Shown here one piece after another: positions 12,848 through 40,493 of a DNA stretch of 64,000 nucleotides (positions are counted from its first letter, which is position 1; every line of letters begins with the position of its first letter). Both the position numbers and the translations under genes were made by a program. The notes under the pieces were generated by a model. It saw only the letters and a program-made list of their open reading frames with translations. It had not been told where the DNA came from and ran no database searches. Source of the DNA: a virus; the IMG/VR virus record IMGVR_UViG_3300032116_000104, positions 1-64,000 of that record; one strand, 5' to 3'.

Positions 12848-14593
12848 TCATCCCTTCTTGGAGGCAACTCCAGATAACTGCTTGTCACGACCATTGGCGT
12901 CTTTCTCCCACTGGTCGGCTCGGCTCTTTCCCTTAGCAAAATCCTCAAATTTGGGCCTATCAAAGATTTCCATGGCTTTGCCAGGAACCTTTCGGGCAAT
13001 GAGTTTCGGCACCCCATCGTCGGAATCATTGTCCCAAAGATAGAACTCGTCCATTAGTCCTTCACCGAAGGCCTCGGAAATTGAGTACGGAATGATTCCA
13101 GCCATCTTTCTGGCAAGCCTCACTGGTGTTTGCTGGGTGCTGGTTTGCGCCCTTCTTGTTGCCCGTCTTTCGGCAACATCGTCTGAGGCATAAACGAAAT
13201 GACCAACAGTCCTGTACCCGCTCCTCTTGGCGCCGCGAAGATGCTCCGTTCTTCTGCCAGTTCCCTGAACTATCACGTCCATCCCTTCGGACACCGCATC
13301 TTTAATGATTTTGTCCGTGGCTACTCTTGATGTGTTGTGCACCGCCTCAATACCGCGCCCATCGTTAAATCCTGGTATTCCGAGTTTGACGAAATCTGGG
13401 TCAACATGGGCAGCCTCATCGTCGTTCGGTATTAGGCCGTTGGCCTGAAGGTGCTTTTCAACAACAGTTCCCTTTCCAGAACCAACCGTTCCACCAATGA
13501 AATATGTGGTTTTCTGCCCTGGCTTATTGCGGTGTTCTGGGCGAACCCTTCCGAGGATTATTCTCCCCATTGCCCTTCCGCCGAGTTCAGCATATGGATT
13601 TGCTTTTGTAGCCTTTGGATTATCAGTAGGCGGAGTAGTTGAAGAACGAAGGCCAGCAGGCTTTGACATTGAACGAGCAATAGAGGCTCTTTCCTTGGGA
13701 CTCAACTCAGCGATGGCATCAATTGAGGGGCCGAATCTGTCCTCTCTCTCCTGCTCGGACATTGAGTGATACCACTCTTCTGCTGGCGCTCGCCTCTGCT
13801 TTTTACCAGCGATGACGCCTACTGCTTTTTGAATTTTTCCCGTAACGGCAGGTCTCTGAAACGGCGTGTTGTCCTGAAGTATTCCGTCTCCATCACCATC
13901 TTCAGCCTTGGGGTCAAACCTGGCAGAAACATTCCTCAAAGTTCTGCCCAGGCCCTTGTAGTCGTGAAGTTCTTCAGCGAGTGACTTCTTTCGTGTTCTG
14001 GAAGAATCTTTTAGAACGGTTCTCACGGCTCTGGTAAAAGCCTGCTGCTGGTGCCTTCTTCCTAGTGGTGTTGTGCCAGCAAGGCGGTCATAGTCGCTCA
14101 TATTTGTGCATGGCATCCATACAAGTTTTCCACTTTTGCTTACTCTTCTTGATACCCCGATGCAGCCCATTTGGCGCGAGCGCTTCCTAGCCGACTCAAT
14201 GTCAGTGAAAACATCCATATCCTCATCTCTAGGGGAATATGGAGCCTGGATTGCCTTGACCGACATGCCACGGGATTCAATAGAAGCGGTTGCTATTGGG
14301 GCGGAAACAAGACCCCCAGATGGAAGAGTGTCAATGCCAAGAACACCTCTTTCGCGCAACTTCTGGAAGCCACTGCGACGCTTTTTGCCTTTCTTCTTTC
14401 TTCTTGAATTCCAGTTCTCAATATCATCTTGAGTAATCCTAGAAACCCCAGCCTTGCGCATCATGGCGTCTTTGTACTCTGTGAACGAAGAACATGGCAT
14501 CCATTCTCCGTGTTCACCAACATGGGCGCCAGAACAGCCGAGTTCAGAAGCAGCACGAAGTGCTTTTGCTTGAAGCGCTGGCTCCGACGACAT
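12848..14593 (-). CDS. Modular head-region protein: two GC...WMPC (DUF3721-like) repeats, DGDGD tag, GLRS, zeta-toxin-like P-loop kinase
   Basis: GCSGAH...WMPC and GCIGV...WMPC; FDPKAEDGDGDGILQDNTPFQRPA; FIGGTVGSGKGT...VDPDFVK...DVIVQGT. Confidence 0.8.
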   Translation of the reverse strand: MSSEPALQAKALRAASELGCSGAHVGEHGEWMPCSSFTEYKDAMMRKAGVSRITQDDIENWNSRRKKKGKKRRSGFQKLRERGVLGIDTLPSGGLVSAPIATASIESRGMSVKAIQAPYSPRDEDMDVFTDIESARKRSRQMGCIGVSRRVSKSGKLVWMPCTNMSDYDRLAGTTPLGRRHQQQAFTRAVRTVLKDSSRTRKKSLAEELHDYKGLGRTLRNVSARFDPKAEDGDGDGILQDNTPFQRPAVTGKIQKAVGVIAGKKQRRAPAEEWYHSMSEQEREDRFGPSIDAIAELSPKERASIARSMSKPAGLRSSTTPPTDNPKATKANPYAELGGRAMGRIILGRVRPEHRNKPGQKTTYFIGGTVGSGKGTVVEKHLQANGLIPNDDEAAHVDPDFVKLGIPGFNDGRGIEAVHNTSRVATDKIIKDAVSEGMDVIVQGTGRRTEHLRGAKRSGYRTVGHFVYASDDVAERRATRRAQTSTQQTPVRLARKMAGIIPYSISEAFGEGLMDEFYLWDNDSDDGVPKLIARKVPGKAMEIFDRPKFEDFAKGKSRADQWEKDANGRDKQLSGVASKKG

Positions 14594-14595
14594 AA

Positions 14596-14985: not shown

Positions 14986-15004
14986 ACCTTAGCACTACTG
15001 TCAA

Positions 15005-18000
15005 TTAGCCGTAATTTTGGATAATCCACTGACGACGAGCAATGAGTTTACGAATCAATTCGGCCCTCTCATTGGGGTCTGAAATCGCATCAGAAACCAT
15101 TTGTGTAATCATCTGGTCGGTGATTTTCTTCAAGTCGTCAACTTGTTGCTTAATTTCTTGAGGAGTGATATCTCTGAGAATACCCGCGCCTCCTGGGTTG
15201 AAGTTCGGGTCTCTAAGTGTCTCCATCTCCCTGGCTTCATCACCGAACTGGGTTCCCTTGGGGGCGCCCTGGGCCCTGTAGTTCAATGAGCCACCATGGT
15301 CAATTCTAACGGCACGGCCCTGACCGTCGTTCTTGATATTTCCAGAGTTGGCAAAGGCATCCCAGTTGCCGAGCCATGCATCGGCAACATATCCTCTTCT
15401 CATTGCCATTCTTTCACCAAGGGTATTGCCAGACATTGGGCCAGACCCAGGAACCCATTCGGAAACTACCTGTACTTGTCCATTGTCATTGCCAATATCA
15501 ACGCGCGATGCTGGAACATTGAGCGCTCGGTACAGTGCTGATGCAAGAACTTCGTTTTCAACGTGGGACTGAGAGCGTCCCTGCTTTACATAATACTTCT
15601 TGCCATCTGGTGCGGTGTACTGACCGCCAGGATTTGAGCCAAGTTGTCCACCAGTTTTTGTCCATCCAGAAGTATCAATAACTTTTGCGCTTGAACTGCC
15701 TTTGGCGGCCTTGGGGGTCTTGGGGGTCTTTTGCTTCTTCGGTTCCGCTCCGCTGACAATTCCAGCCTGCGCGTCTCTTACGATTCTCTGACCCTGCTCG
15801 TTGGTTAGCGGCTTATTGACGGCAATAATTGCGCCTCTGTTGTGAACAACGAGAGGTCCACCGCTTTCCATATCAATAGCGTCATAGCCTAGAACTGGCG
15901 CCCAATAGTTCATGTCGTGAGCAAACATTTTGCCGACATGCTGCATTGCTACCCAAATATCTTCCGAGTCTTTTCCTGATGACTTCCCGTAATTGTCAAT
16001 TAACTGCCTATAGACCTGCCCAAGCGGCGTGTCCCAATCGGCATCCGTTACCCTGCCCTCAAGGTGTTGGAGCAAGCCAGTAACATAATCTTTCGGGTCT
16101 GTTTTTTCCGCTTCTCCCTCTGGGAATCCAGCATCATAGGCTCTGATGGCATCTTTTATCTTTCGGCCATCTTCAACAATTCTGTCAAGTTCAGACCTCT
16201 TAACGACCCTCGCTGATGGAGAAACGAATGCAAGCATTCTCGCGTCTCCGAAAGAACTGCTCCATGAAAAACTGTCACCCTCAAAAGCCCAGTATTCACC
16301 AATGCCATATGCTGAACCACCCTGTCCAGGAATGAATCTGTCTTCATCGGTGAGATAAGCGTCAACAAATCCAGTGTCATTGCCAACACCCCTGTTGATA
16401 GGTCTCCATCCAGCGGTGACAAGCATTTCAACCTGGTCTTCTCTGATTTGGGTTGGCAGGCCGTTCTGCTCCATGTTTTCCCAAATCAACAAAAGACTTT
16501 CGTTCGTAACCTTGCCAATTCTCTTGGATTCGGTTTTCTCTCCGCGCTTAAACCTAGACAGTTCGCCCTCAATGAACGCCATTCTTGATGTCCACTCGGG
16601 AGTAACCTTGACCTTGAGGTCTGCTGGCTTGTCTCCAGTTACGCTCAAGGGATGCTTCAGTCTTCCTGACTGATTTCTTCCAGCAATCTTTCCTGCTGTT
16701 TCTTGACCCCTGAGTCGTCCAGCAATCTCACGCCTTGCTCTTCTGATGCGGCGAGCAATACCCTTCTTCTCGGCTTCGGCTTGTCCAGCGGTTCGCCCGA
16801 CTCCAGCCTTACGTGCTTTGCGTCTTTCGCGGCGCGCAACTCTCTTTGGATTTGGGTCAAGAAGTCTTCTTGAAAGACCTTCAAGTCTTTCGCTAGTTCT
16901 TTTCTTGACTTTTGCTTTTTCTCCAGTTTCAAGAGTCTCTTCGGCAACATATTTCTTTGCACGCCCACTCTTGCCGTAGTATGTGGAATCAACTCTTCCC
17001 ATTGTTGGGAATGTTCCTTCAATCTTCGTTCCAGAATCCTTGCCCTTTCCAAGCGCAGCCTCTTTGGACGGTGGATGAAGATGCTCAAGCATTTCATGCG
17101 AATCGTTTTTCTGCATGTTCCTGATTGTGCGCAGGTCGTCAAACTGGCGATAAAAAGTTTGGAACGCCTTGTCGTTCTCGGCAAGTTTTTTATCCCTATC
17201 TGGGCCTGGCGCCATATCACTCATTATTCTGGTGATTGAATCGCGTTCCTGTTCCTGAATTTCGGCCTGCAGAACAACCATAAATTCATCGGTAAAGTCG
17301 CTGTCGCGTGAAATGCCTGGGTATTGCTTTTTTGTCTTCGGATTTGTGAGCCAGGCATCCCAAAGACCACTTTTCTTAAAGATGCCTTGCAGTTTCTGCT
17401 TTCTCTTTTCAAGGTTTTGAACTACTGCGCTTCTCTGCTCTTGCGTCATTGATGCCCATGCTGAGCCGTCTTTTGCATCAACTCTGTCAACACCAGCAGT
17501 AGCCCGTGTTTTCTTTTTAGTCTTTGGCGTCTTTGTGCGTGAACGCATTCCAGTCTCAACGGTGCCTCTCTCCATTCTGGAGCGAAGACCAGCGGCTGGG
17601 CGCGTTCCTCTTCTTGGCGCGGCATCAATTTCTTCGGATGCTGCTGGCTTGGTTGTGCTTCTTAGTGAAGTACGCTGCGGCTTTCCACGACCTTCCGCTT
17701 GCTGCATCTGCTGTCTGCGGCTCTGCTCATTCCATGCGCGAGTCGCCGCTCTGGTGTTGACTTTGCCGCCAGTTGACCTGTCATTGACACCTGGAATTGC
17801 TGGACGCTGGAATGGAGTGCTGTCCTGAACGATGCCGTCGCCATCTCCGTCCCAGGCATTGGGGTCAAATCTTGAAGTTATTGCTCTTCCGATTCTGCGG
17901 GCGCTTCTGGTGCCACCGCCGCCTCCGCCGATTGCGCGACCGAGAGCCTTCTCCTCTGTCTTAAAGAAGTCTCCGACCTTTCTGCGCTCACCCTGTTGAA

Positions 18001-18592
18001 CAATTGTCTTGAGAGCCTTTACTCCCAGTCTGCGCTCAAAAGAAGTGCTGACAGCCGACTCAATTCTCTCACGGATGAGCGACTTCTCTTCAATGGAAGG
18101 GCGAGGCATAAACTTGGCGCGGTCAATATCAAATGCGTATCCATTTGACTTTACTTCGCGCATCATTGATGACTTCTGGGCATCAAACCTGAAAGCAAGG
18201 CCCTTATAGTTGACGGCGTTTAGATATTGGGAGTTCTTGAAGTGACGAATGGGTGTGTCAAAGACTGCTGGTGTCTTTGACGCCGACTTAACCCGATTGG
18301 TTCCAGCAAACATGTAGTCTTTCCTGCTGGCTATTGCGACCTTTACGGAGTCAACATCTCCAGAAATCATCCTGTCAAAAATGGCATCTTCCATCTGCTT
18401 GAAGGCGCCAACGATTACCCCAGGCGGCATGTCAATGGCAGAGAGGCTCTTGACGTTCGTTGAGTTGGCCCATGATGCCCAGTTTGTACTATGGGTGTCA
18501 ACCCCATAGAACTCGTATGAAGCAGCACTCTTCACTACAAAGCCAAAATTAACGCCTTGAAGAGCGTCATGAAGAATGGCTACTTTTTTCAT
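15005..18592 (-). CDS. 1195-aa modular protein: leader, DGDGD tag, G[LM]RS sites, ADP-ribosyltransferase-like domain, HipA/PI3K-like kinase domain
   Basis: ART-like: NRGV...G.GG.AYG.GEY.A...LGYDAI...HNR. Kinase-like: GGQLGSNPGG.Y....YYVK...NEVLAS.LY...DAWLGNWD...N...RIDHG. Confidence 0.8.
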   Translation of the reverse strand: MKKVAILHDALQGVNFGFVVKSAASYEFYGVDTHSTNWASWANSTNVKSLSAIDMPPGVIVGAFKQMEDAIFDRMISGDVDSVKVAIASRKDYMFAGTNRVKSASKTPAVFDTPIRHFKNSQYLNAVNYKGLAFRFDAQKSSMMREVKSNGYAFDIDRAKFMPRPSIEEKSLIRERIESAVSTSFERRLGVKALKTIVQQGERRKVGDFFKTEEKALGRAIGGGGGGTRSARRIGRAITSRFDPNAWDGDGDGIVQDSTPFQRPAIPGVNDRSTGGKVNTRAATRAWNEQSRRQQMQQAEGRGKPQRTSLRSTTKPAASEEIDAAPRRGTRPAAGLRSRMERGTVETGMRSRTKTPKTKKKTRATAGVDRVDAKDGSAWASMTQEQRSAVVQNLEKRKQKLQGIFKKSGLWDAWLTNPKTKKQYPGISRDSDFTDEFMVVLQAEIQEQERDSITRIMSDMAPGPDRDKKLAENDKAFQTFYRQFDDLRTIRNMQKNDSHEMLEHLHPPSKEAALGKGKDSGTKIEGTFPTMGRVDSTYYGKSGRAKKYVAEETLETGEKAKVKKRTSERLEGLSRRLLDPNPKRVARRERRKARKAGVGRTAGQAEAEKKGIARRIRRARREIAGRLRGQETAGKIAGRNQSGRLKHPLSVTGDKPADLKVKVTPEWTSRMAFIEGELSRFKRGEKTESKRIGKVTNESLLLIWENMEQNGLPTQIREDQVEMLVTAGWRPINRGVGNDTGFVDAYLTDEDRFIPGQGGSAYGIGEYWAFEGDSFSWSSSFGDARMLAFVSPSARVVKRSELDRIVEDGRKIKDAIRAYDAGFPEGEAEKTDPKDYVTGLLQHLEGRVTDADWDTPLGQVYRQLIDNYGKSSGKDSEDIWVAMQHVGKMFAHDMNYWAPVLGYDAIDMESGGPLVVHNRGAIIAVNKPLTNEQGQRIVRDAQAGIVSGAEPKKQKTPKTPKAAKGSSSAKVIDTSGWTKTGGQLGSNPGGQYTAPDGKKYYVKQGRSQSHVENEVLASALYRALNVPASRVDIGNDNGQVQVVSEWVPGSGPMSGNTLGERMAMRRGYVADAWLGNWDAFANSGNIKNDGQGRAVRIDHGGSLNYRAQGAPKGTQFGDEAREMETLRDPNFNPGGAGILRDITPQEIKQQVDDLKKITDQMITQMVSDAISDPNERAELIRKLIARRQWIIQNYG

Positions 18593-20634
18593 TTCCTGTC
18601 CCCAATCACACGCAGTAGTGTCTGCTTGCTTGTTGTGAGTCTGTCAATTCTCTGTTCAACGATTCGCCCGAGAATGTCAATATGTGTTTTCTCAGCATCA
18701 GAAAGTTGTCCGTCGCTGTAGAGGCGAGTCTTGAAATTTGTGAAGTTGAACGCCCTGGCCCTCTTGAGCAAGGTGTCAATCATTTTTCTAAAAGCAAACC
18801 TCTGATTCTCTTTTAGTTCAGCCCAATACTGCCTATACATTGCCGCCCTCTGGGCGGAATAGAAATCATCCACACCCATCTTGCTGCGCTTGGCTACCTC
18901 AATTTTATCTAAATCAGTCAATCCTGAGGTGAAGTTATTGACCATTACTGGCTTGGGGTTCTTGCCGTCGGTAACGGGGATAATGCTGCCTGGGTCTCTA
19001 TCCCTCTGGTCAGATAGGTAGTCGGCAATCATCATTCGGGCTACGTCCTCTGGCTCGTAGTCCTTGAAGTCAATATTTCTGTCCATTCTGTAGCCGCGCA
19101 TCACGCTGTCGGCATCCTGGACTAGATACTTTCTATTGTCGCCTTTACCGACAAATAGGACATCTGGCGACTCAAGACCGAGGTGTTCTTGAATGTCTGA
19201 AGCCAACCTCTGGCCAATATGCTCGTATCTTCTTGACGGGCTATGGAGGGTGTACTTGGTGCCATCCTTGCCCTCTACCAAGGTTCTCTTTGCGTCAAGT
19301 TTGGTCATCTTGAGCAGTGCCTTCTGAGCAAGAACCTTTTGAAGGATGTCTGGGGATATGTCAGCAAAAGAACCACCAGCATTGACGTGCTCAATGGCGT
19401 CATCAATGTTGTTGATTTTCTTGCCAATCTGGGCAACTGAATCAGTGCCAGCGCGCACTTGGGATGTCGGCTTGGCCTTCTTGCCCTTGCCAAATACCTC
19501 ATCAACCCATCTCTGCGTTGGCTTCTTGCCTGGCTTGGCAACTATCTCGTTCGGATTGTCAATATTGACGAAGTCCTCTGAGTATCTGATTCCGTCACCA
19601 GTCTGAGCAACGACCTCCTTTAGTCTTGCCGTTGCGTCTCTATCCACTGGAATCTGGGCGGCAGAGTTGACGGTTCTGCCGAGTTTTCTTCTTTCACCAA
19701 CGGTCAGCGGACGAACTTTTTCAAGGCTGATTGTTGAGCCACCTGGAGTTACATAAGTCAGTTTTGTTACCCCAGTGTTTGATAGGAGTCCAAGTTCCTG
19801 TCCACCAATGTCGCTTGGCTGACCAACTGTGACCAGATAATTCGCGCCTTCCATGTCTCTGTTGTCTGGAATGGCGCGAAGAACTTGCGCTGGCACTACT
19901 GGCTCCAGAACATATCCATCTCTGCGGACCATTCTGGCGATTCCAGATTGACGCACCTCACCCATTTGGGTGGACAATTCTCTGGAGCGTTGCTGTGCCA
20001 ATCTGAGGTTCGCTACCCCAACGCGAGGAATTTGAGGACGGCGGGATTGAATTATTGAATCTGGCGGAGCGTCTCCAGTAATCAGTCGTGAATCGCCTTC
20101 TGTTAGGGCGGCATTGGCTCCACGAACCAGGCGGCGAATTGCGCCAATCGTTGCGCCAAGAGGCGAAGGAATATCAAAGAGTTTTTGTCCACACGTAGAA
20201 AGCCTGTTGTCCGTGAATCGGCCACCATACTGGTAGCCCTCAGGACAGCGTGATGTCCTATCCCGACCAGGCCCGCGAAGCGGAAGGTTCGGTTTTCCTG
20301 GCGTCAGCGCGCCCAATACTCCAGACCTGATTGGGCTACGGATTGGGCTGAGGTTTCCTGGAATAACCGTTGAGGCTACTCCTTGAGCAATCTGTCCAAT
20401 AGTTGAGTGGCTACCAATGAGGCCTACCTTGACATCGTAATTTTTAGAAATACCAGCCCTTTTAGCGAGCGCCTTGTACTCAACGATGTTCTGGTTGCGA
20501 TTGATTCTCTCATTCAGGATTCTGTGGGGTCGCTCAAATGACTTGTATGAGTTAGATACAAGTGAAATGCGCGTTACGGAAATGGGAATCATCCCATTGC
20601 AGCAATCGGAGTAATCAGCAGCAGCCATCGCCAT
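18589..20634 (-). CDS. 681-aa head-region protein with RCP..FTD..C motif and degenerate HipA-like kinase C-terminus
   Basis: HIGQRLASDIQEHLGLESPDV...IADYLSDQRDRDPGSI...VNN, where canonical catalytic residues appear altered. Confidence 0.75.
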   Translation of the reverse strand: MAMAAADYSDCCNGMIPISVTRISLVSNSYKSFERPHRILNERINRNQNIVEYKALAKRAGISKNYDVKVGLIGSHSTIGQIAQGVASTVIPGNLSPIRSPIRSGVLGALTPGKPNLPLRGPGRDRTSRCPEGYQYGGRFTDNRLSTCGQKLFDIPSPLGATIGAIRRLVRGANAALTEGDSRLITGDAPPDSIIQSRRPQIPRVGVANLRLAQQRSRELSTQMGEVRQSGIARMVRRDGYVLEPVVPAQVLRAIPDNRDMEGANYLVTVGQPSDIGGQELGLLSNTGVTKLTYVTPGGSTISLEKVRPLTVGERRKLGRTVNSAAQIPVDRDATARLKEVVAQTGDGIRYSEDFVNIDNPNEIVAKPGKKPTQRWVDEVFGKGKKAKPTSQVRAGTDSVAQIGKKINNIDDAIEHVNAGGSFADISPDILQKVLAQKALLKMTKLDAKRTLVEGKDGTKYTLHSPSRRYEHIGQRLASDIQEHLGLESPDVLFVGKGDNRKYLVQDADSVMRGYRMDRNIDFKDYEPEDVARMMIADYLSDQRDRDPGSIIPVTDGKNPKPVMVNNFTSGLTDLDKIEVAKRSKMGVDDFYSAQRAAMYRQYWAELKENQRFAFRKMIDTLLKRARAFNFTNFKTRLYSDGQLSDAEKTHIDILGRIVEQRIDRLTTSKQTLLRVIGDRK

Positions 20635-21214
20635 CCTTGCGAACGAAAGGCATGGACTTCATGGCCCCAGACCACTCGTCCTCTCCTTCAATTTCCCAGT
20701 TCTTGTCATCGTTGATGAGACTTACAAAGCCTTTCTCCATCTCAACGAAATCTGCTAGAACCTTCACTGCGTGCTGCATGTCGTCAACGGTGACGACGGC
20801 GTCCTCAAAGCCCTCTTCGTCAGCCATGTTGAGCATTTTCTTGCCAGCGATTCTACGAAGACGGTCGTTGAAGTCGCTGTCGCTCCAGACAGAACCACGA
20901 ACAACTCCCCTCATCTTCTTGCGACAGTTCTTCATGCCAGGGTGATGACAGCCCTCGTTTGGCCAGAGACCAGTTGTCTCATGGTGGAGCCAAGCGCAAA
21001 TGTTGTTGAGTGGATACAACTCTGGGTGGTTTGCGAGAATCACCTTGCATCGGCGGAATCCACCAGGCTTGCGCATGATGGGACGCCAGTATCTGAGAAG
21101 CCTCTCAAGGTTGCCTCTTCTTGGGCCACGACCTCTGAGAATGTCGCCAGTGAGTTGCTCCTGCGGAACATCAAAGAGAACGTCCTGCGGAGCCTTAATC
21201 TCAAAATCACTCAT
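20615..21214 (-). CDS. Head-region protein with His/Cys-rich domain
   Basis: GNLERLLRYW...PGGFRRC...ICAWLHHETTGLWP..GCHH....C; similar motif recalled from actinophage head accessory proteins. Confidence 0.75.
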   Translation of the reverse strand: MSDFEIKAPQDVLFDVPQEQLTGDILRGRGPRRGNLERLLRYWRPIMRKPGGFRRCKVILANHPELYPLNNICAWLHHETTGLWPNEGCHHPGMKNCRKKMRGVVRGSVWSDSDFNDRLRRIAGKKMLNMADEEGFEDAVVTVDDMQHAVKVLADFVEMEKGFVSLINDDKNWEIEGEDEWSGAMKSMPFVRKDGDGCC

Positions 21215-21216
21215 TC

Positions 21217-29104: not shown

Positions 29105-29121
29105 AGGGATTCACTTTCTTT

Positions 29122-30630
29122 TCAGGAAAGGTCTGACCCGTTGCCCTCAATTTCCGAGTTGAGAAGTTCAAACTCAACAAGGGATGAGATGAACGAATCT
29201 GAACCATCGCCAGACTTCTCTTCCATCATCTTGGCTCCGCCAGTCAGCCAGTTCACTGGAATCATGCTCTCCTTGCCAAGTTCCTTGGCACGCTTCATGA
29301 TGTGACGCTTTGCGGCCTCTTTGTCCTTGGCGCGACCATAGGCCTGAATGGCGTTCTGGAGGTCAGACTCATTGGCAATCGGGAACGAACCATCAGGAAG
29401 GGCATTGCCCTCCTTGGCCATGGCGGTGCGCTGGTCCTCAGTAAAGGCGCGCTTGAGTGCAATCTCGGCAGCCTCGGCCTCAATCGCCTCGGCCTCCTCT
29501 GGCTCGTACTTGTCGTAACCGAGCACCTCACCATCAAGGGCAACAAAGACATCGTATGACTTGCCGTCAATGCCGTTAATCTCAACGGCATAGGCGTCAA
29601 AGCCCTCAAAGATGTCTGGCTCAACAGAAATAGCCTCGCCCTCAATGGACTTGACGGCAATCTCTACTGCCTCAGACATATCAATAACTAACATTGAATC
29701 AAGCGCTGACTTCTGCTCAAAAGAGTTCTCGTCAAGTTTCTTCCAGCCAAGCACCTCGGAGGTGGTGCCATCAATGAACATTTCTACAGCCCGACCATCT
29801 TTTGCCTCAACATCAACGACGAACATGTCGGCGTCAGATGAGTACCCAGAGTCAAGTACCTTGCCATCAAACATGGTTTCGGCAATACCCTCGGCGTGCA
29901 AAAGACCTGGCATTCCAGCCTCAGGCACGCATCCGCCTGGGCAGTCAGCGCAAACAGCGGCACCACCTGGGTACACCTTGCGCTCAATGGAGCAAAGATA
30001 AGCGTTTCTTCCGACCTCGGCGGCCTTGACACCAAGGGACTGGAGGCGGCGCTTGCGCATCTTCTCCATATCGCCTGGGATACCCATGCCGTAGCCCTTC
30101 ATGGACTCCTCGTCGTCTTCTTCCTCGTCGTCCTCCTCCTCCATGTCCATGTCCTCGTCGTCCATGTCCATTTCGGGCTTGGCCATTGCGCCCTTCATCT
30201 TCTTTTTGCGCTTGGGCATCATGTAATCGCCATCCATGCCCCAGCCCTTCTCGTCGGACTCATCCTCCATGTCCTCGTCCTCCATCTCCTCCTCGTCGGG
30301 AGCCATCATGGAGGCTTTCATCTTCTTCTTCTTGCGCTTGGGCATCATGTAGTCCTCGCCCATGCCCCAGCCCTTTTCATCGGACTCGTCTTCCATATCC
30401 TCTTCGTCGTCTTCCATGTCCATCTCGGCCATGGAAGCGGCCTTCTCGTAGAGGTCATCAAAGTCCTCATTAATTGGAACCATCTTCATCTGAACGGGCA
30501 CGGCGCCACACTTGGCGCACACCTTCGCACCAGGGACGAAACCGCACTCAGCAGCATCGGCACCCTTGGCGCACTTAAGAACATTGCCATCGGCATCAAT
30601 GCTGACTTCGGCCTTCTCGTCATATCCCAT
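29122..30630 (-). CDS. Capsid-maturation-associated protein: Cys-rich domains, acidic Met-rich repeats, PepSY-like domains, C-terminal DUF6582-like domain
   Basis: C..G...CG......C..CG; EAVEIAVK...G....VE......Y.VEI...DG..Y.V.V..DG.VLG (PepSY-like); ALPDGSFPI...DL.NAI.AYGRA. Confidence 0.8.
   Translation of the reverse strand: MGYDEKAEVSIDADGNVLKCAKGADAAECGFVPGAKVCAKCGAVPVQMKMVPINEDFDDLYEKAASMAEMDMEDDEEDMEDESDEKGWGMGEDYMMPKRKKKKMKASMMAPDEEEMEDEDMEDESDEKGWGMDGDYMMPKRKKKMKGAMAKPEMDMDDEDMDMEEEDDEEEDDEESMKGYGMGIPGDMEKMRKRRLQSLGVKAAEVGRNAYLCSIERKVYPGGAAVCADCPGGCVPEAGMPGLLHAEGIAETMFDGKVLDSGYSSDADMFVVDVEAKDGRAVEMFIDGTTSEVLGWKKLDENSFEQKSALDSMLVIDMSEAVEIAVKSIEGEAISVEPDIFEGFDAYAVEINGIDGKSYDVFVALDGEVLGYDKYEPEEAEAIEAEAAEIALKRAFTEDQRTAMAKEGNALPDGSFPIANESDLQNAIQAYGRAKDKEAAKRHIMKRAKELGKESMIPVNWLTGGAKMMEEKSGDGSDSFISSLVEFELLNSEIEGNGSDLS
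30203..30405 (-). repeat. 126-bp-period imperfect duplication encoding EDMEDESDEKGWGMxxDYMMPKRKKK twice
   Basis: GCGCTTGGGCATCATGT at 30208 and 30334. Confidence 0.8.
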
Positions 30631-30725
30631 TGGTCGGCTCCTTAATGTAAACCGTCGTAGAGTTTATCTGTACTGTGTAAAAGTATACCCTACACACACG
30701 TCGTGTAGGAAGGTATTACTGCGTA

Positions 30726-33700
30726 TTAGAGGTCTTGAATCTCAACTTCTCTTCCGCGCTGATTGCGTCGGTTGACCGTTCTGGAACTCAACTCCTCAAC
30801 CGTTCTGTCAATGAATGTAGCCATGGCTGCTTTAGCGAGCATGTCAAGCATGGTTGCAAACTTCTGCTGACGCTCGTTGCCTCCGATGGCACCTTGACGG
30901 TCAATGACCACCATCATGGCGTCAAGGATTTCATCAACTTCATCTCTGGTCATCAGGATGCGCCCAGCGTTGGTTCTTCTGCTGCCCAACTTGGCTGCCT
31001 CTTGACGACTGATGAGGTCTTGAAGCGCCTTGAGGGCGTCTGATGTTCTCTTGTCCTGAGCCTTGTCTGCCTCACGGATTTCCTTCGGCAGTGAGTCAAG
31101 AATATCTTTGAAGAAAGTGGCTTCTGCCTTGATTTCCGTGCGGCCCTGCTTGGAGTCGGTTGACGACCTCAGGCCTCTCGTGTTCCGCGAGCGGGCGGCC
31201 ACATAATCCCTAACTTCCTGGGACACCACCCTGTTGGCATTGACTGGGACACTTGAGCGGAGACCCTCACCCATGCGTCGGGTAATGACTTCTCCTGCTG
31301 CTGGCTCCGCGTCTGGAGTTGGGACATTGTCGTCAATGTCCAGTGGGCGGCCCTCAACTCTCCTGACAACACCGCCAGTATCGTCAAACGCATCGTCTGA
31401 AATGTCGGCAATGTCGGCAGCAGCGCGACCCCTTCTCGGTGCAACCTCTATCTCTGGTCCATCCTTAATGAACTTGTCATTCTTGTAATAAGTGTCCAGT
31501 CCGTTAAGGGTTCTCAAGAGTGTTTCTGCTCGCTGAATAATCTTCTCTGCTGGACCATCGGTATCGTCGGCTTCCTCGGCGTCAGCGAGGTAGTTCTTAA
31601 CTCTCTGGATGGCAGCCTTGATTTGGTTCCTGCTCAGGTCTTCGCTGTCCATAATGTCAGCGATTTCATCCCAGGCCTCAGCATGGAGTTCATCAATTCT
31701 GCCCCTGTCTGAAAGTCTTGAAGCGTCGTTGACGGTCTTGTCAAGGAAGTTGTTGATTCTTCTTGAGTCGTCTCTACGCTCCGTGGTTGCGTCTTCGTCA
31801 TTTGCAGGACGAGGCTTGACGGCAACTTCTTTTGGCCCCTGTTGTGGCTGGCGTTGTGTCGGCTGCACTGGGCCCCTCTCGGCACGACGAGCCCCACGCT
31901 CTGCCCTTCTTTCGTCAGAAGCCTCTCTATCAAGCACTTCCTTCATAACGCGCTCATAGTCAACTTTGCGCATTCCACTTCTCTCTGGAGAGTGGTCTGC
32001 CATCCAGTTGAACTGTTGTTCTGCCGTCATGCCATCCCAGTTATCTGGCTTCATGCTCTGGAATGTCTTGCCCTTGCTGTCTTCCTTGGCCCTAGAGCCC
32101 ATCGGGCGTCCTTTGCTGCCACTGCGACCAGTATCACCGAGTCCTGTTACGCGGATTCCACCTCCGCCAGTATCGTCATCGCTGGTTGATGAACGCATGC
32201 CACGACCACTTGACTTCTTGGGATTGGCATCGCCAGTAATATTGCTGTACAGGGTATCAAGGGCCTTCCAGTCCTTCGCAAGAAGCGTTCCGTCCCCACG
32301 CCTGTTGTACTCCTCTCGGATTCTCATTGAGACGCCGAGGCTTCCACCCCTTGCGCTGTTCATGAAGAACACGAGTTTCTTCTGGCGGGCCTCATCAATG
32401 TCCGCAGGAGCGCCATTGTTATTATTTGAACGAAGGCCTAGGTTGCCGCGCTTGCCAGCCTGCTGGTCTTCCCAGTTGAGGCTCACATACTTTCCGCCCT
32501 CTGATTCGGCGGCCTGGTCAATTACGCCCTGAATGTCGGAGGTAACAACTGTTCTGCCGTCTCGGCGTGGCTCTTTTGCCGACTCAATGGCGTCTTCAAT
32601 CTGCTCAACCTCGTCTGGGGTGAGGTCAACTTTGCCATTCCTTGCGTTTTTAAGTTTCTCGTCAAGAGCATCAAGCGCTGCACCATTGGCAGAAAAACGC
32701 TTGAGCATTGGAATCTCGTCGCGAAGTTGTGCAATCTCATCGTCGCTGAGCGTCATTGATAGATTGTTTGCAACTCTTCTTGTTGAAGAACGCATTCCCT
32801 CATCTGAATCGGTCCGTGACTGTTGTGCCGCCTCGCGACGACGCATTGCACGCAGTTCCGCCTTGCGAACATCTTCACGACGCATTCCGAGAGACTCGGC
32901 CACTTCCTGGAGTGATTCACCTGCCTCGCGGCGTCTCAGAATTCGGTTTTCCGTTTTTTCTCTTTTTGCCCTTTCAAGACCTTCCTTGACGGTGGGTCTT
33001 GGTTTCCTGGCGGCGCGCGCAGTTGTGACCGCCCTGTCTTTCCCAGTCCAGTCCTTGAAAATCCTTGCCCTGGTCGCAAAATCACCTATTCCTTTATCGT
33101 CCCATGCATCAAAAACTCTTTCAGTTATTCCATCACCCCATGGGCCCATCATTTCCCTAACAGACGGGTTCTGCACTGGGAAGTCATCATCTATGCCCAG
33201 AGCGCTGGCAATTTGCTCGGCAACGATTTCCCCAAAACCGTTCAATACATCAACGAATGCCGATTCTTCTCCTTCGTCCCCAAATAGTCCATCAGACATG
33301 AGCCTGACCGCATCCTCTGCGAGAGAATCCATGCGAGAACGCATATTTTCTCTGGTAAATGGGGTGTTGGCAGCCGCATCAAAGAGTTCTTCAGTCCTGC
33401 TCCGAGACGACTCATCCAGGTCACGAATCATTGACCTTCCTGACTCCCTTTTACGCACATCAGACACTCTGTCTTTTCTGTCACGAGTTGACGACATCAG
33501 ACCTCTAATGCGTGCCTTTTGCTTATCGTTTGGATTTGGACGAATGGGCAATTTTTCAATATTGCGCTCCATGCGGTCACGCCAGTCATCCAGAAGTTCA
33601 ATTATCTCATCTTTGCTGAAAGAGTCCCAGTTTCGCAGCCACTCTCCCGTTGGGTCATCTGGGTCAGGGAGATACTCATTATCTGGGATGTTCGCTGCCT

Positions 33701-36700
33701 TGACTCTTTCCTCAAGAAGGTCACGAGCAAGGTAGGCAATATCAGTGACAGCCGTTCTATCTCCGCCACCTCCAGTGTTTCTGACACCATTTGCGGCTAT
33801 GTCAATTATTGACTGACGGATACGATTTAGTTCATCGCCAATGTTTTCTGGAGTTATGTCAGTGAGAACTATTGATTCAAAAAGTTCCATCGCTCTGTCT
33901 GCTGTGGCGGCATCCCATCCACCGCCCTGCTGCCCAGGCTGCATGAACCCCCTGATGTCACGCAACTCTTTTGACGCATCAAGTCTTGCCTGACGCGCCT
34001 GTTGTGCTGCCGCAGATGCGCGCCCTGCCTCTACGTCCCTCATATTGACGACTTCTACATCGCCAGTGCTGGAACGGACTCCTGTAGTTGGAAATTTGTT
34101 ATTTAACCCATTGGTCAGGGTATTGATTTCGTCTTCTGAGAATCCAAGTTCTCTGAGTTTGCCAACAATGTCTGACTCAATTTTCTGACGCGCCTCGCGA
34201 GACTCCGTTGGGTCAATCTTGCCCTTTTCATCACGCTTGACCATTCCAGAGCCGCGCTTACCGAGGTTCTCGGTCGTGGAGCGCATTCCACTACGGCGAC
34301 GCGCTGGGTTCAGGTTCTCAAGTTCTTCTTTAGAAACACCTTCAACAATGACCCTTCTTGCGGTCTTGGCGACTTCAAGTTGTCTGGCGAGCCTGGCTTC
34401 GTCTGGGCTTGGCTTGGCTCTCTCCATGTTCATATCGTCAACAGCAAGTTTGAGAACTCTATTCATGTCCTCAAAGTTGGTAGTCCCATTCTTCATGTCA
34501 CGAATGAGGCCATCAACCCAATCCTTGTCAAGGCCGCCCCTTGCCGAGTAGGCGGTTGGATAGTCTTCTAGTGACTCTTCAATATCTCTCAGAAACTCTG
34601 AAATTCTTCTGCCGCGACGGTCGGTAATTGACAGCGGTGAGTCCATTGAAGAACTCCTGAGACCACGAGCACGATTCATGCGTGGGTCTCCTCTGGTCTC
34701 TGCAATCTCCCATGCACGGAGGTCTTCCGCTCTGACGCCAAGGATTCCAGCAAGTTCACGAACTGGCGTTCCTTCAAAGCGCTTACGCAAGATGAATTCA
34801 GCAAGAGCCCTATCGGTGTCCTGGAATCGCGGCTCCTGACCTGGCTCCCCTCGTTGCGCAAGTTGTGCTGGTGTTCGTGCTGGGATGAGGTCTTTCGCCC
34901 TCTTCTTAATTTCCTGAATTTCTAGTTTCCGCACTTCTTCGCGCGACATACCATACTCTTCAGCAACATCATCAAGTACTTTGCCAGCAAGACGAGCATC
35001 AACAATCGCCCTGTCTCTGTCAATCTCAACCTGCATATCGTCCAGCAGCGCATCAACATCGTCTCTATCGGTTGAGGAACGAAGGCCTCTTCTTGAGCCA
35101 CCCGCATCTATGGAATCAGCAAGTTGCTGAATATCCTCAAACGGACCACCACGGTCTCTTCCGTATGCAGAGAGAGTGGCTATTAAAGCCAGTCTTGCGT
35201 TGTTCTTATCGTCCTCGCTAAGAGGAGACTTTGGCCTTCTTCTGCTCGGAAAGAATTTTGTAAAATCATCTCTGTCGCCGTCAGACAGTTTTATATATTG
35301 GTCTTTAAGTGTTGAAATAAGGTCGCTTAGTTCTTCTGCGCCAGGAAATTCGTCTGGAATGTCGCCTTGCATTACTGATGCAACTGTCCAGTCTGAACCA
35401 GGCTGCGGGGGAAAGTAATCGCCCTGTTCGCTAGGCATAAACCGCGAAAGAACCTCCCCGAGGTTTTCAAGGAGAATTTCATCTACATCATCCATTGATG
35501 TATCACCGTCATTGCCAAGACTTGCGTCAAGCGCCTCTATTGCTCGCTGAAGTGCTTTTGTCTGCTCATCTATGGTCATTTCCGCAAAGCGGTCTCCCAT
35601 TGCGTCAATAATTTCTCTTTGCTCTACGCTATTGGCCTTTGCCGTTCTTGAGCGAAGCCCATCAGGGCGACCCTTGGAGTCTCCAGCACTTTGCATGCTA
35701 CGCACCATGTTACGAAGCGCATCAGAGTTTTGCTTATCCGTACTACGAACTCGCTTGTTATTTACTGAGTCAAGAACTGTGCCGAGGGCAAGAAGAGACG
35801 CAATTTGGTCGTCTTCTGACACTGCTCTCTTCCCTCTGGTTTTATACATGTCACCAAAGCGACCCTTGCCGCCAAGTTTTTCATAGGCATCCTGGACTTC
35901 ACTCAGAAGGTCACTGACGCTCTCTTTGTCAACGCTCTCTGAACCATCAAGAATTTTGGATGCTGAGTAATCACCCGATGGCGCTTCCACGGATAGAAAA
36001 TCACTCATTAGTTCAGACAGGTATTCTCTGTAGAAATCAATTTCATCGTCACCAGTGGCATCAAACAATTCCAACTGGTCTTTAACGATATTTCTAAAAG
36101 CCTCTTTTCTTTCAGATGGAGACATTTTTGCCATTGATTCAATTGCTGTTCCAGAACGCAGTCCACCATCACGACGGTTCTTGGCCTCAAGTTCGGCTTG
36201 TCGCACATCCTCGCGACGCATGTTGAGCGACTGAGCAACATCCTGTAGTGACTCCCCAGCCTCGCGGCGCTTGAGAATCTCATCGTTTGTCTTGCGCTTT
36301 GCATCGCGCTGGCGGATTGCCCGAAGTTCAGCCTTTCGCACGTCTTCGCGGCGCATGCCAAGGGACTCGGCTACGTCCTGCAAGGACTCTCCAGCCTCAC
36401 GGCGCTTCAAGATGGAGGCGTCGTCGTTGCTGTCTTTTCCACCAGATGAACGGAGACCACGACCAGTGTTGATGCCCTGCCCCTGGGCGGCCTGAATTGC
36501 CGCCTGAGTATTTACGCGACCACGCGTTGACCTGTCGTTGACGCCTGGAATCGCAGGTCTTTGGAACGGTGTCCCTTCTTGAACGATGCCATCGCCGTCA
36601 CCGTCCCAAGCGTTGGGGTCAAATCTAGCGGTTAGGCCTCTTGCGAGGCGGCGTCCTTTTCCCCCTCCGCCACCACCAATCGCTCGCCCGATGCGATTGC

Positions 36701-38015
36701 CAAGCCCCTTCTTTAGAGTTTCAACTGCATCAATGAACTCGGGAGTGACACCAGAGGTAATCACGATTCCCTTTTCAGAGACATATGAATCTACGCGGTG
36801 GTAATCCATGATTGGGTCAAGGAGTTGCTTCGTGTGGAAAGCATTATTGATGTCAACTGGGATGACATACTCTGCTGACTTCACTTCAACTTCCTTCTCT
36901 GCCGAAGCAAGGACATCTTGGAGCATTTCCATGACATTCTTCAGTTTTGCAAGGTTGCGCTTGTTGAGCGAGCGGCCAATCTTCTCCTCAATGTCATCAA
37001 GGAAGAAGTCGTCAAAGTCCAAGTCGTCGGACTTTCCTGGCATTGGCATGAAGTCGTCTGGGTCATCCCCAAGATAGGCGTCCCCCTGCGGCTTCATTGA
37101 CACAGCAAAAGCCTGTGCTGGAGATGACGGTATGGCGGGAATCTCTGGCGTGTAGACAGTCTGACTCTGGACGCGCTCAGGCTTGCCAAACATGAATTGA
37201 CCATCCTGGAAGTGGAATGCCACTCTGTATGTTGACGACTCACCGTCGCTTGTCAGTCTGTCAAAAACAACAGTGTTCTCTGTTGCGGCCCTCACGATGA
37301 CGTTGGAGCCAGACCGCTTGACAAGTTCCCTTCTGAGGGCAACCATCAGCGGGTTCTCTGGGGCAGATGGACGAACTGGGCGAACGGCCTGCTGTGGCTT
37401 CGGCGCCATTGGCTTCATCATTCCAGACGGCATTCCAGGGCTGTGCGGCATGCCTGGCATGCCCATCATTCCGTGACCCTTCTCCTCATCCGCCAGAGTA
37501 GTATCTGACTTAACCGAAATCGTGCCAGTCAGTTGGTTGGCTCCATGAAGAACTGGGGAAACCTCGTAAAGTTCCACCTCTCTGAGGATGTTGGCCTGAA
37601 GATTAGGGTCAAAAGACGCCTGAATGGTCTTGTAGCCAATTGACCACTCCTGCTCCTCACCAAAGAAGGCAACATTGGCGAAAGCCTCACGGCCCTTCTC
37701 TGAATTGAGGTTGAACTGAACGCGAGCGTAAAGACCGCCGATTCCAGCAGCCTTCATCTTTCCTGGCAGTCTTGAGTCGGTTGGGGGAACTTCGTAAATC
37801 TCCAAAACCTTGCCGATGGGGTCATTCCAGTTGTGTCCCCAGACGACTCTTGGCTTGCGTCGCTTCAGACTTGAGTTAAAAGCACCTGGGAGAAGAACAT
37901 CACCGACGCTGTCCTTGTTTCCGACGCCAGCAACGAAGCACTCAACGATGCCCTGAGCCTGGTCAACATTGAATGTTCCAGAACTCGCTTTGAACTCAAT
38001 ATCAGAAAAAGACAT
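30726..38015 (-). CDS. Prohead (HK97-type, S78) protease fused to a ~2250-aa modular polyprotein
   Basis: N-terminal ~170 aa: G.VE.FV...GNKDS.GD...PGAF..SL......W.HNW..PIG...WSIGY...LYEVSPVL.GAN. Lies between portal and capsid genes. Confidence 0.92.
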   Translation of the reverse strand: MSFSDIEFKASSGTFNVDQAQGIVECFVAGVGNKDSVGDVLLPGAFNSSLKRRKPRVVWGHNWNDPIGKVLEIYEVPPTDSRLPGKMKAAGIGGLYARVQFNLNSEKGREAFANVAFFGEEQEWSIGYKTIQASFDPNLQANILREVELYEVSPVLHGANQLTGTISVKSDTTLADEEKGHGMMGMPGMPHSPGMPSGMMKPMAPKPQQAVRPVRPSAPENPLMVALRRELVKRSGSNVIVRAATENTVVFDRLTSDGESSTYRVAFHFQDGQFMFGKPERVQSQTVYTPEIPAIPSSPAQAFAVSMKPQGDAYLGDDPDDFMPMPGKSDDLDFDDFFLDDIEEKIGRSLNKRNLAKLKNVMEMLQDVLASAEKEVEVKSAEYVIPVDINNAFHTKQLLDPIMDYHRVDSYVSEKGIVITSGVTPEFIDAVETLKKGLGNRIGRAIGGGGGGKGRRLARGLTARFDPNAWDGDGDGIVQEGTPFQRPAIPGVNDRSTRGRVNTQAAIQAAQGQGINTGRGLRSSGGKDSNDDASILKRREAGESLQDVAESLGMRREDVRKAELRAIRQRDAKRKTNDEILKRREAGESLQDVAQSLNMRREDVRQAELEAKNRRDGGLRSGTAIESMAKMSPSERKEAFRNIVKDQLELFDATGDDEIDFYREYLSELMSDFLSVEAPSGDYSASKILDGSESVDKESVSDLLSEVQDAYEKLGGKGRFGDMYKTRGKRAVSEDDQIASLLALGTVLDSVNNKRVRSTDKQNSDALRNMVRSMQSAGDSKGRPDGLRSRTAKANSVEQREIIDAMGDRFAEMTIDEQTKALQRAIEALDASLGNDGDTSMDDVDEILLENLGEVLSRFMPSEQGDYFPPQPGSDWTVASVMQGDIPDEFPGAEELSDLISTLKDQYIKLSDGDRDDFTKFFPSRRRPKSPLSEDDKNNARLALIATLSAYGRDRGGPFEDIQQLADSIDAGGSRRGLRSSTDRDDVDALLDDMQVEIDRDRAIVDARLAGKVLDDVAEEYGMSREEVRKLEIQEIKKRAKDLIPARTPAQLAQRGEPGQEPRFQDTDRALAEFILRKRFEGTPVRELAGILGVRAEDLRAWEIAETRGDPRMNRARGLRSSSMDSPLSITDRRGRRISEFLRDIEESLEDYPTAYSARGGLDKDWVDGLIRDMKNGTTNFEDMNRVLKLAVDDMNMERAKPSPDEARLARQLEVAKTARRVIVEGVSKEELENLNPARRRSGMRSTTENLGKRGSGMVKRDEKGKIDPTESREARQKIESDIVGKLRELGFSEDEINTLTNGLNNKFPTTGVRSSTGDVEVVNMRDVEAGRASAAAQQARQARLDASKELRDIRGFMQPGQQGGGWDAATADRAMELFESIVLTDITPENIGDELNRIRQSIIDIAANGVRNTGGGGDRTAVTDIAYLARDLLEERVKAANIPDNEYLPDPDDPTGEWLRNWDSFSKDEIIELLDDWRDRMERNIEKLPIRPNPNDKQKARIRGLMSSTRDRKDRVSDVRKRESGRSMIRDLDESSRSRTEELFDAAANTPFTRENMRSRMDSLAEDAVRLMSDGLFGDEGEESAFVDVLNGFGEIVAEQIASALGIDDDFPVQNPSVREMMGPWGDGITERVFDAWDDKGIGDFATRARIFKDWTGKDRAVTTARAARKPRPTVKEGLERAKREKTENRILRRREAGESLQEVAESLGMRREDVRKAELRAMRRREAAQQSRTDSDEGMRSSTRRVANNLSMTLSDDEIAQLRDEIPMLKRFSANGAALDALDEKLKNARNGKVDLTPDEVEQIEDAIESAKEPRRDGRTVVTSDIQGVIDQAAESEGGKYVSLNWEDQQAGKRGNLGLRSNNNNGAPADIDEARQKKLVFFMNSARGGSLGVSMRIREEYNRRGDGTLLAKDWKALDTLYSNITGDANPKKSSGRGMRSSTSDDDTGGGGIRVTGLGDTGRSGSKGRPMGSRAKEDSKGKTFQSMKPDNWDGMTAEQQFNWMADHSPERSGMRKVDYERVMKEVLDREASDERRAERGARRAERGPVQPTQRQPQQGPKEVAVKPRPANDEDATTERRDDSRRINNFLDKTVNDASRLSDRGRIDELHAEAWDEIADIMDSEDLSRNQIKAAIQRVKNYLADAEEADDTDGPAEKIIQRAETLLRTLNGLDTYYKNDKFIKDGPEIEVAPRRGRAAADIADISDDAFDDTGGVVRRVEGRPLDIDDNVPTPDAEPAAGEVITRRMGEGLRSSVPVNANRVVSQEVRDYVAARSRNTRGLRSSTDSKQGRTEIKAEATFFKDILDSLPKEIREADKAQDKRTSDALKALQDLISRQEAAKLGSRRTNAGRILMTRDEVDEILDAMMVVIDRQGAIGGNERQQKFATMLDMLAKAAMATFIDRTVEELSSRTVNRRNQRGREVEIQDL

Positions 38016-40445: not shown

Positions 40446-40493
40446 ATGAACAACATTACCTTATACGACGAACGGCTGTCGGAGGGCATATTT

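Follow-up and report, generated by a model that had tools for sequence, protein, structure and literature searches.

Known signals for capsid cargo and how the tag compares

How HK97-type phages choose their capsid-internal proteins is understood, to our knowledge, in a few model phages only, each of which uses a different short signal. Known capsid-targeting signals are the one in the T4 internal proteins (CTS), the C-terminal tail of the HK97 protease and the N-terminus of P1 DarB, and encapsulin cargo is loaded by peptides that are short, C-terminal, hydrophobic or Gly-rich and devoid of a metal site. The subject here is a tag of 26 residues shared by three otherwise unrelated proteins, which are encoded in the first 64 kb (64,000 nucleotides, hereafter the window) of IMG/VR virus record IMGVR_UViG_3300032116_000104. 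This record is 84,372 bases long, has an estimated completeness of 56% and belongs to a phage group known here from uncultured sequence, with no cultured host or phage. Judging from sequence, the tag may be a docking handle for cargo carried inside the capsid, a reading that we put forward tentatively, at somewhat less than even confidence.

Like the T4, HK97 and P1 signals, the tag is a short peptide common to unrelated head proteins, one of which is the prohead protease, and it likewise combines an N-terminal bias with adjacent candidate protease sites. Unlike them, it is longer, has a cation-loop signature and is often internal or repeated, and we know of no sequence likeness between it and the T4 CTS, the HK97 tail or the DarB signal. 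The initial annotation had likened the tag to encapsulin cargo-loading peptides, an analogy that stands as far as the idea of a portable peptide docking cargo inside an HK97-fold shell is concerned, but is complicated by several points: the tag is internal in the window, is present in two to five copies in some carriers and is kept in protease and portal fusions, and it is lacking from the protease of a related phage and falls outside the protease-capsid interval in 3/21 mapped cases and in a 2515-aa gene of record G006.

Two other bodies of work are close to what is described below. In Excalibur repeats (PF05901), which belong to extracellular bacterial proteins, the calcium ligands are the three Asp and the Glu of DxDxDGxxCE (PMC8391695, in part), and EF-hands and other loops have a Dx[DN]xDG core (PMC3123361, in part) that the tag has in common with them. 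Polyvalent proteins of phages and conjugative elements, which have MuF or portal domains as anchors and are giant, multidomain and found in a packaging-gene context like the proteins bearing the tag (hereafter, carriers), have been proposed to travel inside the capsid and to enter the host together with the DNA (Iyer et al., 2017, PMC5512222, in part). The main text of that last source, in the part covered here, contains neither 'calcium' nor 'EF-hand', and the tag is not among the domains described there. More generally, no description of the tag was found in the literature searched, the supplements of which may hold domain lists. Short capsid-targeting signals and DxDxDG loops are already known kinds; a cation-loop peptide as a recurrent signature of probable phage head cargo is undescribed in the searched literature and family libraries.

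Three copies of the tag in the head block

The head block of the window is on the minus strand and reads, in order, portal, 2429-amino-acid (aa) protein, 502, 1945, 549, 134, 199, 681, 1195, 129 and 581-aa proteins, and capsid, so that all three tag-bearing genes sit between the portal gene and the HK97-type capsid gene. The large terminase gene (40446-41801) is divergent relative to this block. Its limits and the three carriers are as follows.

38106..40202, minus strand, portal protein, upstream limit of the head block
30726..38015, minus strand, 2429-aa carrier, in which the S78 prohead protease comes first, the tag next and last a long part containing Sigma70_r4-like helix-turn-helix (HTH) matches
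15005..18592, minus strand, 1195-aa carrier, no Pfam or PHROG family
12848..14593, minus strand, 581-aa carrier, two DUF3721 units, tag, Zeta_toxin/AAA_33 kinase domain
11356..12684, minus strand, major capsid protein of the HK97 type, whose N-terminal region is delta-like, bounding the head block downstream

The S78 domain spans residues 19-166 of the 2429-aa protein. The 581-aa open reading frame (ORF) is counted from an ATG and becomes 596 aa long if an upstream TTG is the start (12848-14638). The three peptides picked out by the initial annotation were recovered, identical, at their positions on translation of the minus strand; on the plus strand, the frames at the three sites are interrupted by stops. 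The tags and the motifs that precede them are listed here with the expectation values (E) of a tag profile.

36699..36710, minus strand, KGLG 29 residues before tag copy 1, followed by GGGGGG and an Arg-rich stretch
36546..36623, minus strand, tag copy 1, 26-residue core FDPNAWDGDGDGIVQEGTPFQRPAIP, residues 465-490 of the 2429-aa protein, E 2.1e-29
17939..17950, minus strand, KALG before tag copy 2, followed by GGGGGG and an Arg-rich stretch
17792..17869, minus strand, tag copy 2, core, residues 242-267 of the 1195-aa protein, E 2.2e-28
13946..13957, minus strand, KGLG before tag copy 3
13841..13918, minus strand, tag copy 3, core FDPKAEDGDGDGILQDNTPFQRPAVT, residues 226-251 of the 581-aa protein, E 2.0e-23

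These E-values (2.1e-29 to 2.0e-23) argue against chance matches, and in the 84-kb record the profile, constructed from 22 tags, has no match at E <= 1 beyond these three. That the carriers are otherwise unrelated, as had been claimed, is borne out by BLASTP between the three proteins, which aligns the tag region only (residues 455-513 of the 2429-aa protein with 232-290 of the 1195-aa protein, and 452-491 of the former with 229-267 of the 596-aa form), apart from a slight extension between residues 189-317 of the 1195-aa protein and 192-328 of the 596-aa form (33% identity), which is slightly wider than the tag. The two best copies are 72% identical in nucleotides, and of the 43 residues that they have in common, 23 are encoded by different codons. 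The copies are therefore old, not a recent DNA copy, and the peptide is held by selection.

The flanks agree equally well with the earlier description: K[AG]LG is found 13-29 residues ahead of the F of FDP (436/465, 215/242 and 213/226), a GGGGGG run is present in the 2429-aa and 1195-aa proteins, and the first G[LMV]RS comes after the tag (at residues 520, 335 and 314). G[LMIV]RS occurs 12, 5, 2 and 1 times in the 2429-, 1945-, 1195- and 596-aa proteins, respectively, the 1945-aa protein being encoded at 23267-29104 on the minus strand. It is absent from the portal, the capsid protein and six other cassette proteins, as well as from the two tag-bearing giant proteins of a related phage (L085), which implies that this punctuation is lineage-specific and independent of the tag.

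KGLG is also found in the capsid protein, at residues 91-94 (12403-12414, minus strand), near the expected end of its delta-like region, and the tag-less 1945-aa protein has IEVKALGRSIG, with KALG at residues 160-163 (28615-28626, minus strand). These two motifs may represent a shared protease site. KGLG as the capsid maturation site was nevertheless set aside and is kept as a lead, capsid orthologues reading KSL, KSV, KEAV or NGR instead.

Anatomy of the tag

The anatomy of the tag was defined on 156 tags, which come from 131 of the 149 best database matches. The consensus is [FY]-[DN]-P-[NKD]-A-x-D-[GA]-D-[GN]-D-G-[IL]-V-Q-[ED]-G-T-[PA]-[FWY]-[EQ]-R-P-A-x-P, with most positions more than 90% conserved. 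The calcium-loop signature DxDxDG, which the initial annotation had recognised, is retained at every ligand position of an Excalibur-type loop (D in 156 tags, D in 154 with N in the other two, D in 156, G in 148), and loop position 10 is E in 102/156 and D in 53/156 (together 155/156). Conservation is as high at residues that are not ligands: F/Y 154, P 154, A 152, Q 152, T 148, R 153 and P 151.

The tag loop D-G-D-G-D-G-I-V-Q-E fits the Excalibur pattern DxDxDGxxCE, with Asp 1, 3 and 5, Gly 6 and Glu/Asp 10 all kept. Moreover, the tag profile retrieves two proteins (P0013 and P0138; E 1.6e-23 and 4.8e-12) in which Pfam identifies Excalibur (7 and 4 stretches), and their repeats align with the tag as P-x-A-x-D-G-D-x-D-G-h-V-x-E-x-T. 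However, Excalibur has a Cys at loop position 9 where the tag has Gln (152/156) and never Cys, and the flanks differ, the loop of the tag being preceded by F-D-P and followed by aromatic-[EQ]-R-P. The PF05901 model has no match in the three window tag segments at E <= 10, and its best score among small tag proteins is 9.4 bits (E 1.8) versus a cut-off of 22, so that the tag is an Excalibur-like loop with flanks of its own rather than a member of PF05901. As for the setting, Excalibur is described from extracellular bacterial proteins (PMC8391695, in part), whereas the tag is found in phage head-block proteins and is almost absent from cellular genomes. The tag also differs from canonical EF-hands, which have a bidentate Glu at position 12, where the tag has Thr in 148/156, and flanking helices, where the tag is modelled as coil (pLDDT <50) with no helices predicted.

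Scans of the tag segments against NCBIfam (E <= 1) and Pfam (E <= 10) named no family, and a scan of PHROGs returned only phrog_7924, of unknown function (E 2.3e-4). A search of the PDB with the tag profile found no tag-like chain; designed ankyrin repeats (E 0.84-5.5) were rejected as chance matches to DPNAxDxDG. The FrpC self-processing module undergoes calcium-dependent cleavage at an Asp-Pro bond, a mechanism that was considered for the FDP of the tag and rejected, because the D is N in 26/156 and the P is R in 2, and the variant-type tags described below have K-A or P-R there.

Upstream, Arg makes up 23% of the 12 residues before the tag versus 8% in the background, and K-x-[LIM]-G is found within 45 residues in 84/136 tags versus 5.7% of random 45-residue windows. 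The position of the tag is biased towards the N-terminus (median relative position 0.2), and 50/156 tags start within the first 60 residues; in the window carriers, tags are internal (residues 226, 242 and 465). By regular expression, 108 of the 131 carriers have one copy, 22 have two and one has four. A variant type (core RDGDGDGFIYDGTPxERPAP) is found in carriers with 3-5 copies hundreds of residues apart. The loop itself tolerates at least one departure, an orthologue of the 581-aa protein (L055, 9383-12124) having DGDHDM, in which the position-6 Gly is lost and the rest of the tag is intact. In five small proteins of 134-211 aa (P0116, P0085, P0093, P0111 and P0133), two tags stand in tandem, separated by about 25 residues, and lead into a linker; the C-terminal stretch of these proteins is peptidoglycan-binding-like, by eye only.

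AlphaFold2 modelling of these small two-tag proteins (8-row alignment) gave no usable fold (mean pLDDT, the predicted local distance difference test score, 46). For the 581-aa protein (18-row alignment, mean pLDDT 66.6), the DUF3721 units and the kinase domain were modelled, and residues 210-267, which include the tag, came out as coil with pLDDT <50, a linker between folded domains. The tag is therefore predicted to be unstructured.

Distribution and gene position

A profile search of 1.84 billion cluster representatives, which was used in place of a word-indexed homologue search (the latter, run with the tag region of the 596-aa protein, gave 3 candidates and found only the protein itself), returned 841 clusters at E <= 1e-3, of which 173 also pass E <= 1e-10. 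A few of the 841 are true Excalibur repeat proteins, and the names of ten clusters that were looked up are uninformative. In IMG/VR, 160 of 238 pattern matches were confirmed. A scan of 185,579 species genomes (one per prokaryote species) yielded 6 confirmed loci, all on contigs of metagenome-assembled genomes and at least three of them clearly phage cassettes. The tag is thus widespread but restricted to phage-like DNA and nearly absent from cellular genomes.

Among 50,697 cultured phage records, tblastn with two tag variants found no match at E <= 1; mycobacteriophage matches at E 5-7, seen in a search at E <= 10, were taken as noise. Among cultured phages, actinophages have the nearest capsid proteins (Brevibacterium phage Cantare, 49%; Gordonia GMA6/DalanDe-like, ~47%). 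Gordonia phage DalanDe (L095, ON755184.1 22424-27325) has a 1633-aa 'capsid maturation protease', with the capsid gene directly after it, in which the S78 domain is found ~1,120 residues in: a giant fusion of opposite polarity, without a tag.

Gene context was examined in 14 records, as compared with 841 clusters in the profile search. Positions were counted in records that yielded both an S78 protease and a PF05065 capsid gene (one such record, G007, consists of two contigs).

G000 (this record), 3 tag matches, 3/3 between protease and capsid gene
G001, 5 tag matches, 4/5 between protease and capsid gene
G002, 1 tag match
G003, 1 tag match
G004, 4 tag matches, 3/4 between protease and capsid gene
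G005, 5 tag matches, 4/5 between protease and capsid gene
G006, 3 tag matches
G007, 4 tag matches, 4/4 between protease and capsid gene
G008, 1 tag match
G009, 3 tag matches
G010, 1 tag match (weak)
G011, 6 tag matches
G012, 1 tag match
G013, 1 tag match (weak)

Across G000, G001, G004, G005 and G007, 18/21 tags are between the protease and capsid genes, on the same strand, and in G009, G011 and G012 the tags are upstream of the capsid gene, on its strand. At least one tag is near or in the cassette of the protease gene in 7/10 records searched for the S78 family.

Carriers and the place of the tag in them

The initial annotation asked whether the tag is confined to head-region proteins with variable C-termini, and the tag is tied to head-region genes whose enzymatic C-terminal parts vary. 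Pfam domains were tallied in two chosen subsets. In 61 carriers of up to ~1,215 aa, these are Zeta_toxin (11), DUF3721 (10), AAA_33 (7), ADPrib_exo_Tox (2) and Excalibur (2), with NUDIX, RNase_T, DUF3626, GmrSD_C, RelA_SpoT, Peptidase_Mx, EAD1 and others found once each. In 17 giant carriers (>2,100 aa), they are Peptidase_S78 (8), UvrD helicase (4), NUDIX (4), MPTase-PolyVal (2), ArdcN (2) and GNAT (2), with Portal, pentapeptide repeats and Sigma70_r4 found once each. For example, P0113 has a portal and a weak MuF match, after which tag-like copies begin at residue 824, four more of them coming after a GNAT domain, and P0036 has PI3_PI4_kinase and HipA_2 matches with four tag copies. In the window carriers, the named domains are the protease, HTH and zeta-kinase only, and most of each chain is without a family.

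By their sequence, these carriers are polyvalent proteins, with several unrelated effector domains per chain and portal and terminase genes as neighbours. They have in common with the published polyvalent proteins ArdC-N with MPTase, NUDIX, RelA/SpoT, ADP-ribosyltransferase, GNAT and helicase domains, as well as protease and portal (plus MuF-like) fusions (PMC5512222, in part).

The tag also proved as portable as had been supposed, since it follows at least five unrelated N-terminal contexts or stands at the N-terminus itself. The parts that precede it are distinct families (protease, N-terminal part of the 1195-aa protein, DUF3721, 134-like). In two loci (L054 and L081), a homologue of the tag-less 134-aa protein is followed by the tag at about residue 150-166, and in L085 fused homologues of the 199-aa and 681-aa proteins are followed by the tag at residue 654 of a 1670-aa protein. 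Homologues of the 134-, 199- and 681-aa genes of the window (18589-21621) have thus been split and fused around the tag in other phages. Since homologues of tag-less cassette proteins are N-terminal parts elsewhere, the tag marks the place where a conserved part of the cassette meets a variable extension; otherwise, a free-standing cargo gene begins with it.

A proposed handle for docking cargo inside the capsid

How might one peptide serve so many proteins? In the reading that we tentatively prefer, a portable module of ~26 residues, placed after an Arg-rich stretch and usually K-x-[LIM]-G, would mark the start of the cargo part of a protein, the cargo being capsid-internal polyvalent or ejection proteins that are probably delivered to the host with the DNA. 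The loop D-x-D-x-D-G-x-x-Q-[ED] would be a predicted Excalibur-type site for calcium or another divalent cation, and the invariant residues that are not ligands (F, P, A, V, Q, T, aromatic, R and P) would most likely form a small docking surface. Candidate partners in the procapsid interior are the delta region of the capsid protein or the shell, the acidic, scaffold-like 502-aa protein, and the portal. Docking would load and hold cargo during assembly, after which the prohead protease would separate anchor, tag and effector at basic sites (K|[AG]LG upstream and G[LM]RS downstream).

Several observations converge on a common procapsid partner: the ~10 invariant residues that are not ligands, the restriction to phages, the position in the head block, the protease and portal fusions and the N-terminal bias. 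Selection on the peptide rather than on the DNA supports the same reading, as do the S78 fusion in 8/17 giants and the portal with weak MuF match in P0113, which are head-bound proteins. The effector-type domains of the carriers match those of packaged polyvalent proteins (PMC5512222, in part). Further support comes from the location of the tag where a variable extension joins a conserved part of the cassette, and from its place in a low-confidence linker (pLDDT <50), which is common for docking peptides.

Other observations weigh against a docking handle. The confinement to head-region proteins that the initial annotation proposed to examine by profile search holds for the 18/21 tags in the protease-capsid interval but not for the remaining 3/21, two of which are beside nucleotide-metabolism or replication genes. 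In G001, an 811-aa tag gene is among genes for ribonucleotide reductase, endonuclease VII and primase, and its relatives on fragments L076 and L082 are in a like setting; in G004, a 3112-aa gene with the tag at residue 58 is beyond the capsid gene, where it adjoins homologues of window genes at 3.8-10.3 kb; in G005, it is a 135-aa tag ORF that is outside the interval. To these must be added a 2515-aa gene of G006 with three tags, ~24 kb from the capsid gene and on the opposite strand, a 444-aa protease of L085 that is without tag (an attempt to equate the latter with the pre-tag part of the 2429-aa protein was rejected, since BLASTP supports an alignment over residues 4-169, the protease domain, and no further), and, among cultured phages, the nearest relatives, which are without any tag. 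The number of copies is also awkward, since 23/131 carriers have two or four tags and variant-type carriers 3-5, when one loading signal per chain would suffice, and chains fused to protease or portal keep the tag, so that its role must go beyond entry. The peptidoglycan-binding-like end of the two-tag proteins, seen by eye, hints at action in the envelope. Finally, free calcium is scarce in the cytoplasm, the place of procapsid assembly, and this makes calcium-dependent docking at that stage doubtful.

A bolder version of the docking handle strikes us as quite unlikely. In it, the tag would be an ion-gated universal handle that fastens diverse effectors to the inner wall of the capsid or to the portal and releases them upon a change in calcium, that is, between the outside world and the host cytoplasm, thereby combining loading, storage and timed release in one 26-residue sequence.

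Three other explanations, compatible with one another, have to be weighed. The one that fares best, although we regard it as unlikely, needs no partner: the tag would be a cation-dependent switch of fold or stability, an Excalibur-like clasp that is loaded outside and in the free virion and emptied in the calcium-poor host cytoplasm; this would compact or unlock cargo chains for storage, tail threading or activation after delivery. The ligand positions of DxDxDGxx[CQ]E that are all kept in the 156 tags, the retrieval of the true Excalibur proteins P0013 and P0138 by the tag profile, the several copies per chain, which suit a structural clasp, and the peptidoglycan-binding-like end of the small two-tag proteins (by eye) are all in line with it, and Excalibur-like motifs in disordered chains bind calcium at ~100 uM and alter compaction (PMC8391695, in part). 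Ion binding alone, however, leaves unexplained why ~10 residues that are not ligands are invariant across unrelated carriers, and it accounts neither for the N-terminal bias and the Arg-rich lead-in nor for the near-absence from cellular genomes. Moreover, the natural variant DGDHDM breaks the loop Gly.

The enrichment of K.[LIM]G upstream of the tag, and of Arg in the 12 residues before it, could alternatively reflect an exit leader, which we consider very unlikely. Here, a cut at K|[AG]LG would make the Gly-/Arg-rich stretch and the tag the new N-terminus of the cargo, which would dock at the portal or tail entrance or at the DNA end and ensure ordered exit during infection, and such a role after loading would suit the retention of the tag in protease- and portal-fused chains. 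The KGLG of the capsid protein fits too, its position being presumably close to where the HK97 delta domain is removed after a lysine. Nevertheless, the cleavage site is a guess, this KGLG is not kept in capsid orthologues, and the 1945-aa protein has a KALG yet no tag.

The last explanation, that the tag is a processing determinant (one to which the S78 prohead protease, or the zincin domains present in some carriers, would dock and which would mark cuts in polyproteins), is suggested by the 3-5 motifs that punctuate P0113, P0119 and P0036 every ~200-700 residues, the presence of a tag near or in the protease cassette in 7/10 records and the candidate cut sites on both sides of it, but it is very unlikely, since the capsid protein, necessarily cut by the same protease, has no tag, the window has 20 G[LMIV]RS for only 3 tags, the two tag-bearing proteins of L085 have no G[LMIV]RS, and 26 invariant residues far exceed the needs of viral protease sites, which are served by far fewer.

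Other features of the cassette

The whole cassette (terminase, portal, protease fusion, 502, 1945 ... 596, capsid) is syntenic among 79 IMG/VR loci. One of its members is of particular interest for the docking handle as a putative partner.

29122..30630, minus strand, very acidic 502-aa protein directly after the protease gene, candidate scaffold or partner

This protein has an isoelectric point of 4.2, 25% of D+E, a Cys-rich motif and two PepSY-like repeats that are below the Pfam cut-off (E 0.002), and it is kept directly after the protease gene in every cassette examined. It ends in SL[IV]EFELL in 13/15 aligned homologues (an SLIEFELL helix in the window), and the two most distant ones, in L085 and L086, end in SLMELQMM and SLMEMQMM. 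The delta-like region of the capsid protein, another candidate partner, is strongly conserved.

As for the carriers themselves, the C-terminal 256 aa of the 1195-aa protein are like PI3/PI4-kinase and HipA-like clusters (feature scores 0.89-0.92), which is a lead only. In the 2429-aa protein, Sigma70_r4/HTH-like segments are repeated (residues ~568-607 and 1693-1726; Pfam E 6e-10), and a repeat ILKRREAGESLQDVA.SLGMRREDVRKAELRA is present three times.

What the tag could mean for phage biology

Hundreds of giant proteins of uncultured aquatic phages, rich in enzyme domains, thus bear one strongly conserved peptide. Should it be no more than a calcium clasp, it would still represent a new context for the DxDxDG loop. 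If the docking handle is true, the tag would be (i) a sequence marker for virion-delivered effectors in metagenomes, such as kinases, ADP-ribosyltransferases and anti-restriction modules, (ii) a defined peptide for packaging tests in a reconstituted procapsid and (iii) a candidate tag to load foreign proteins into capsids.

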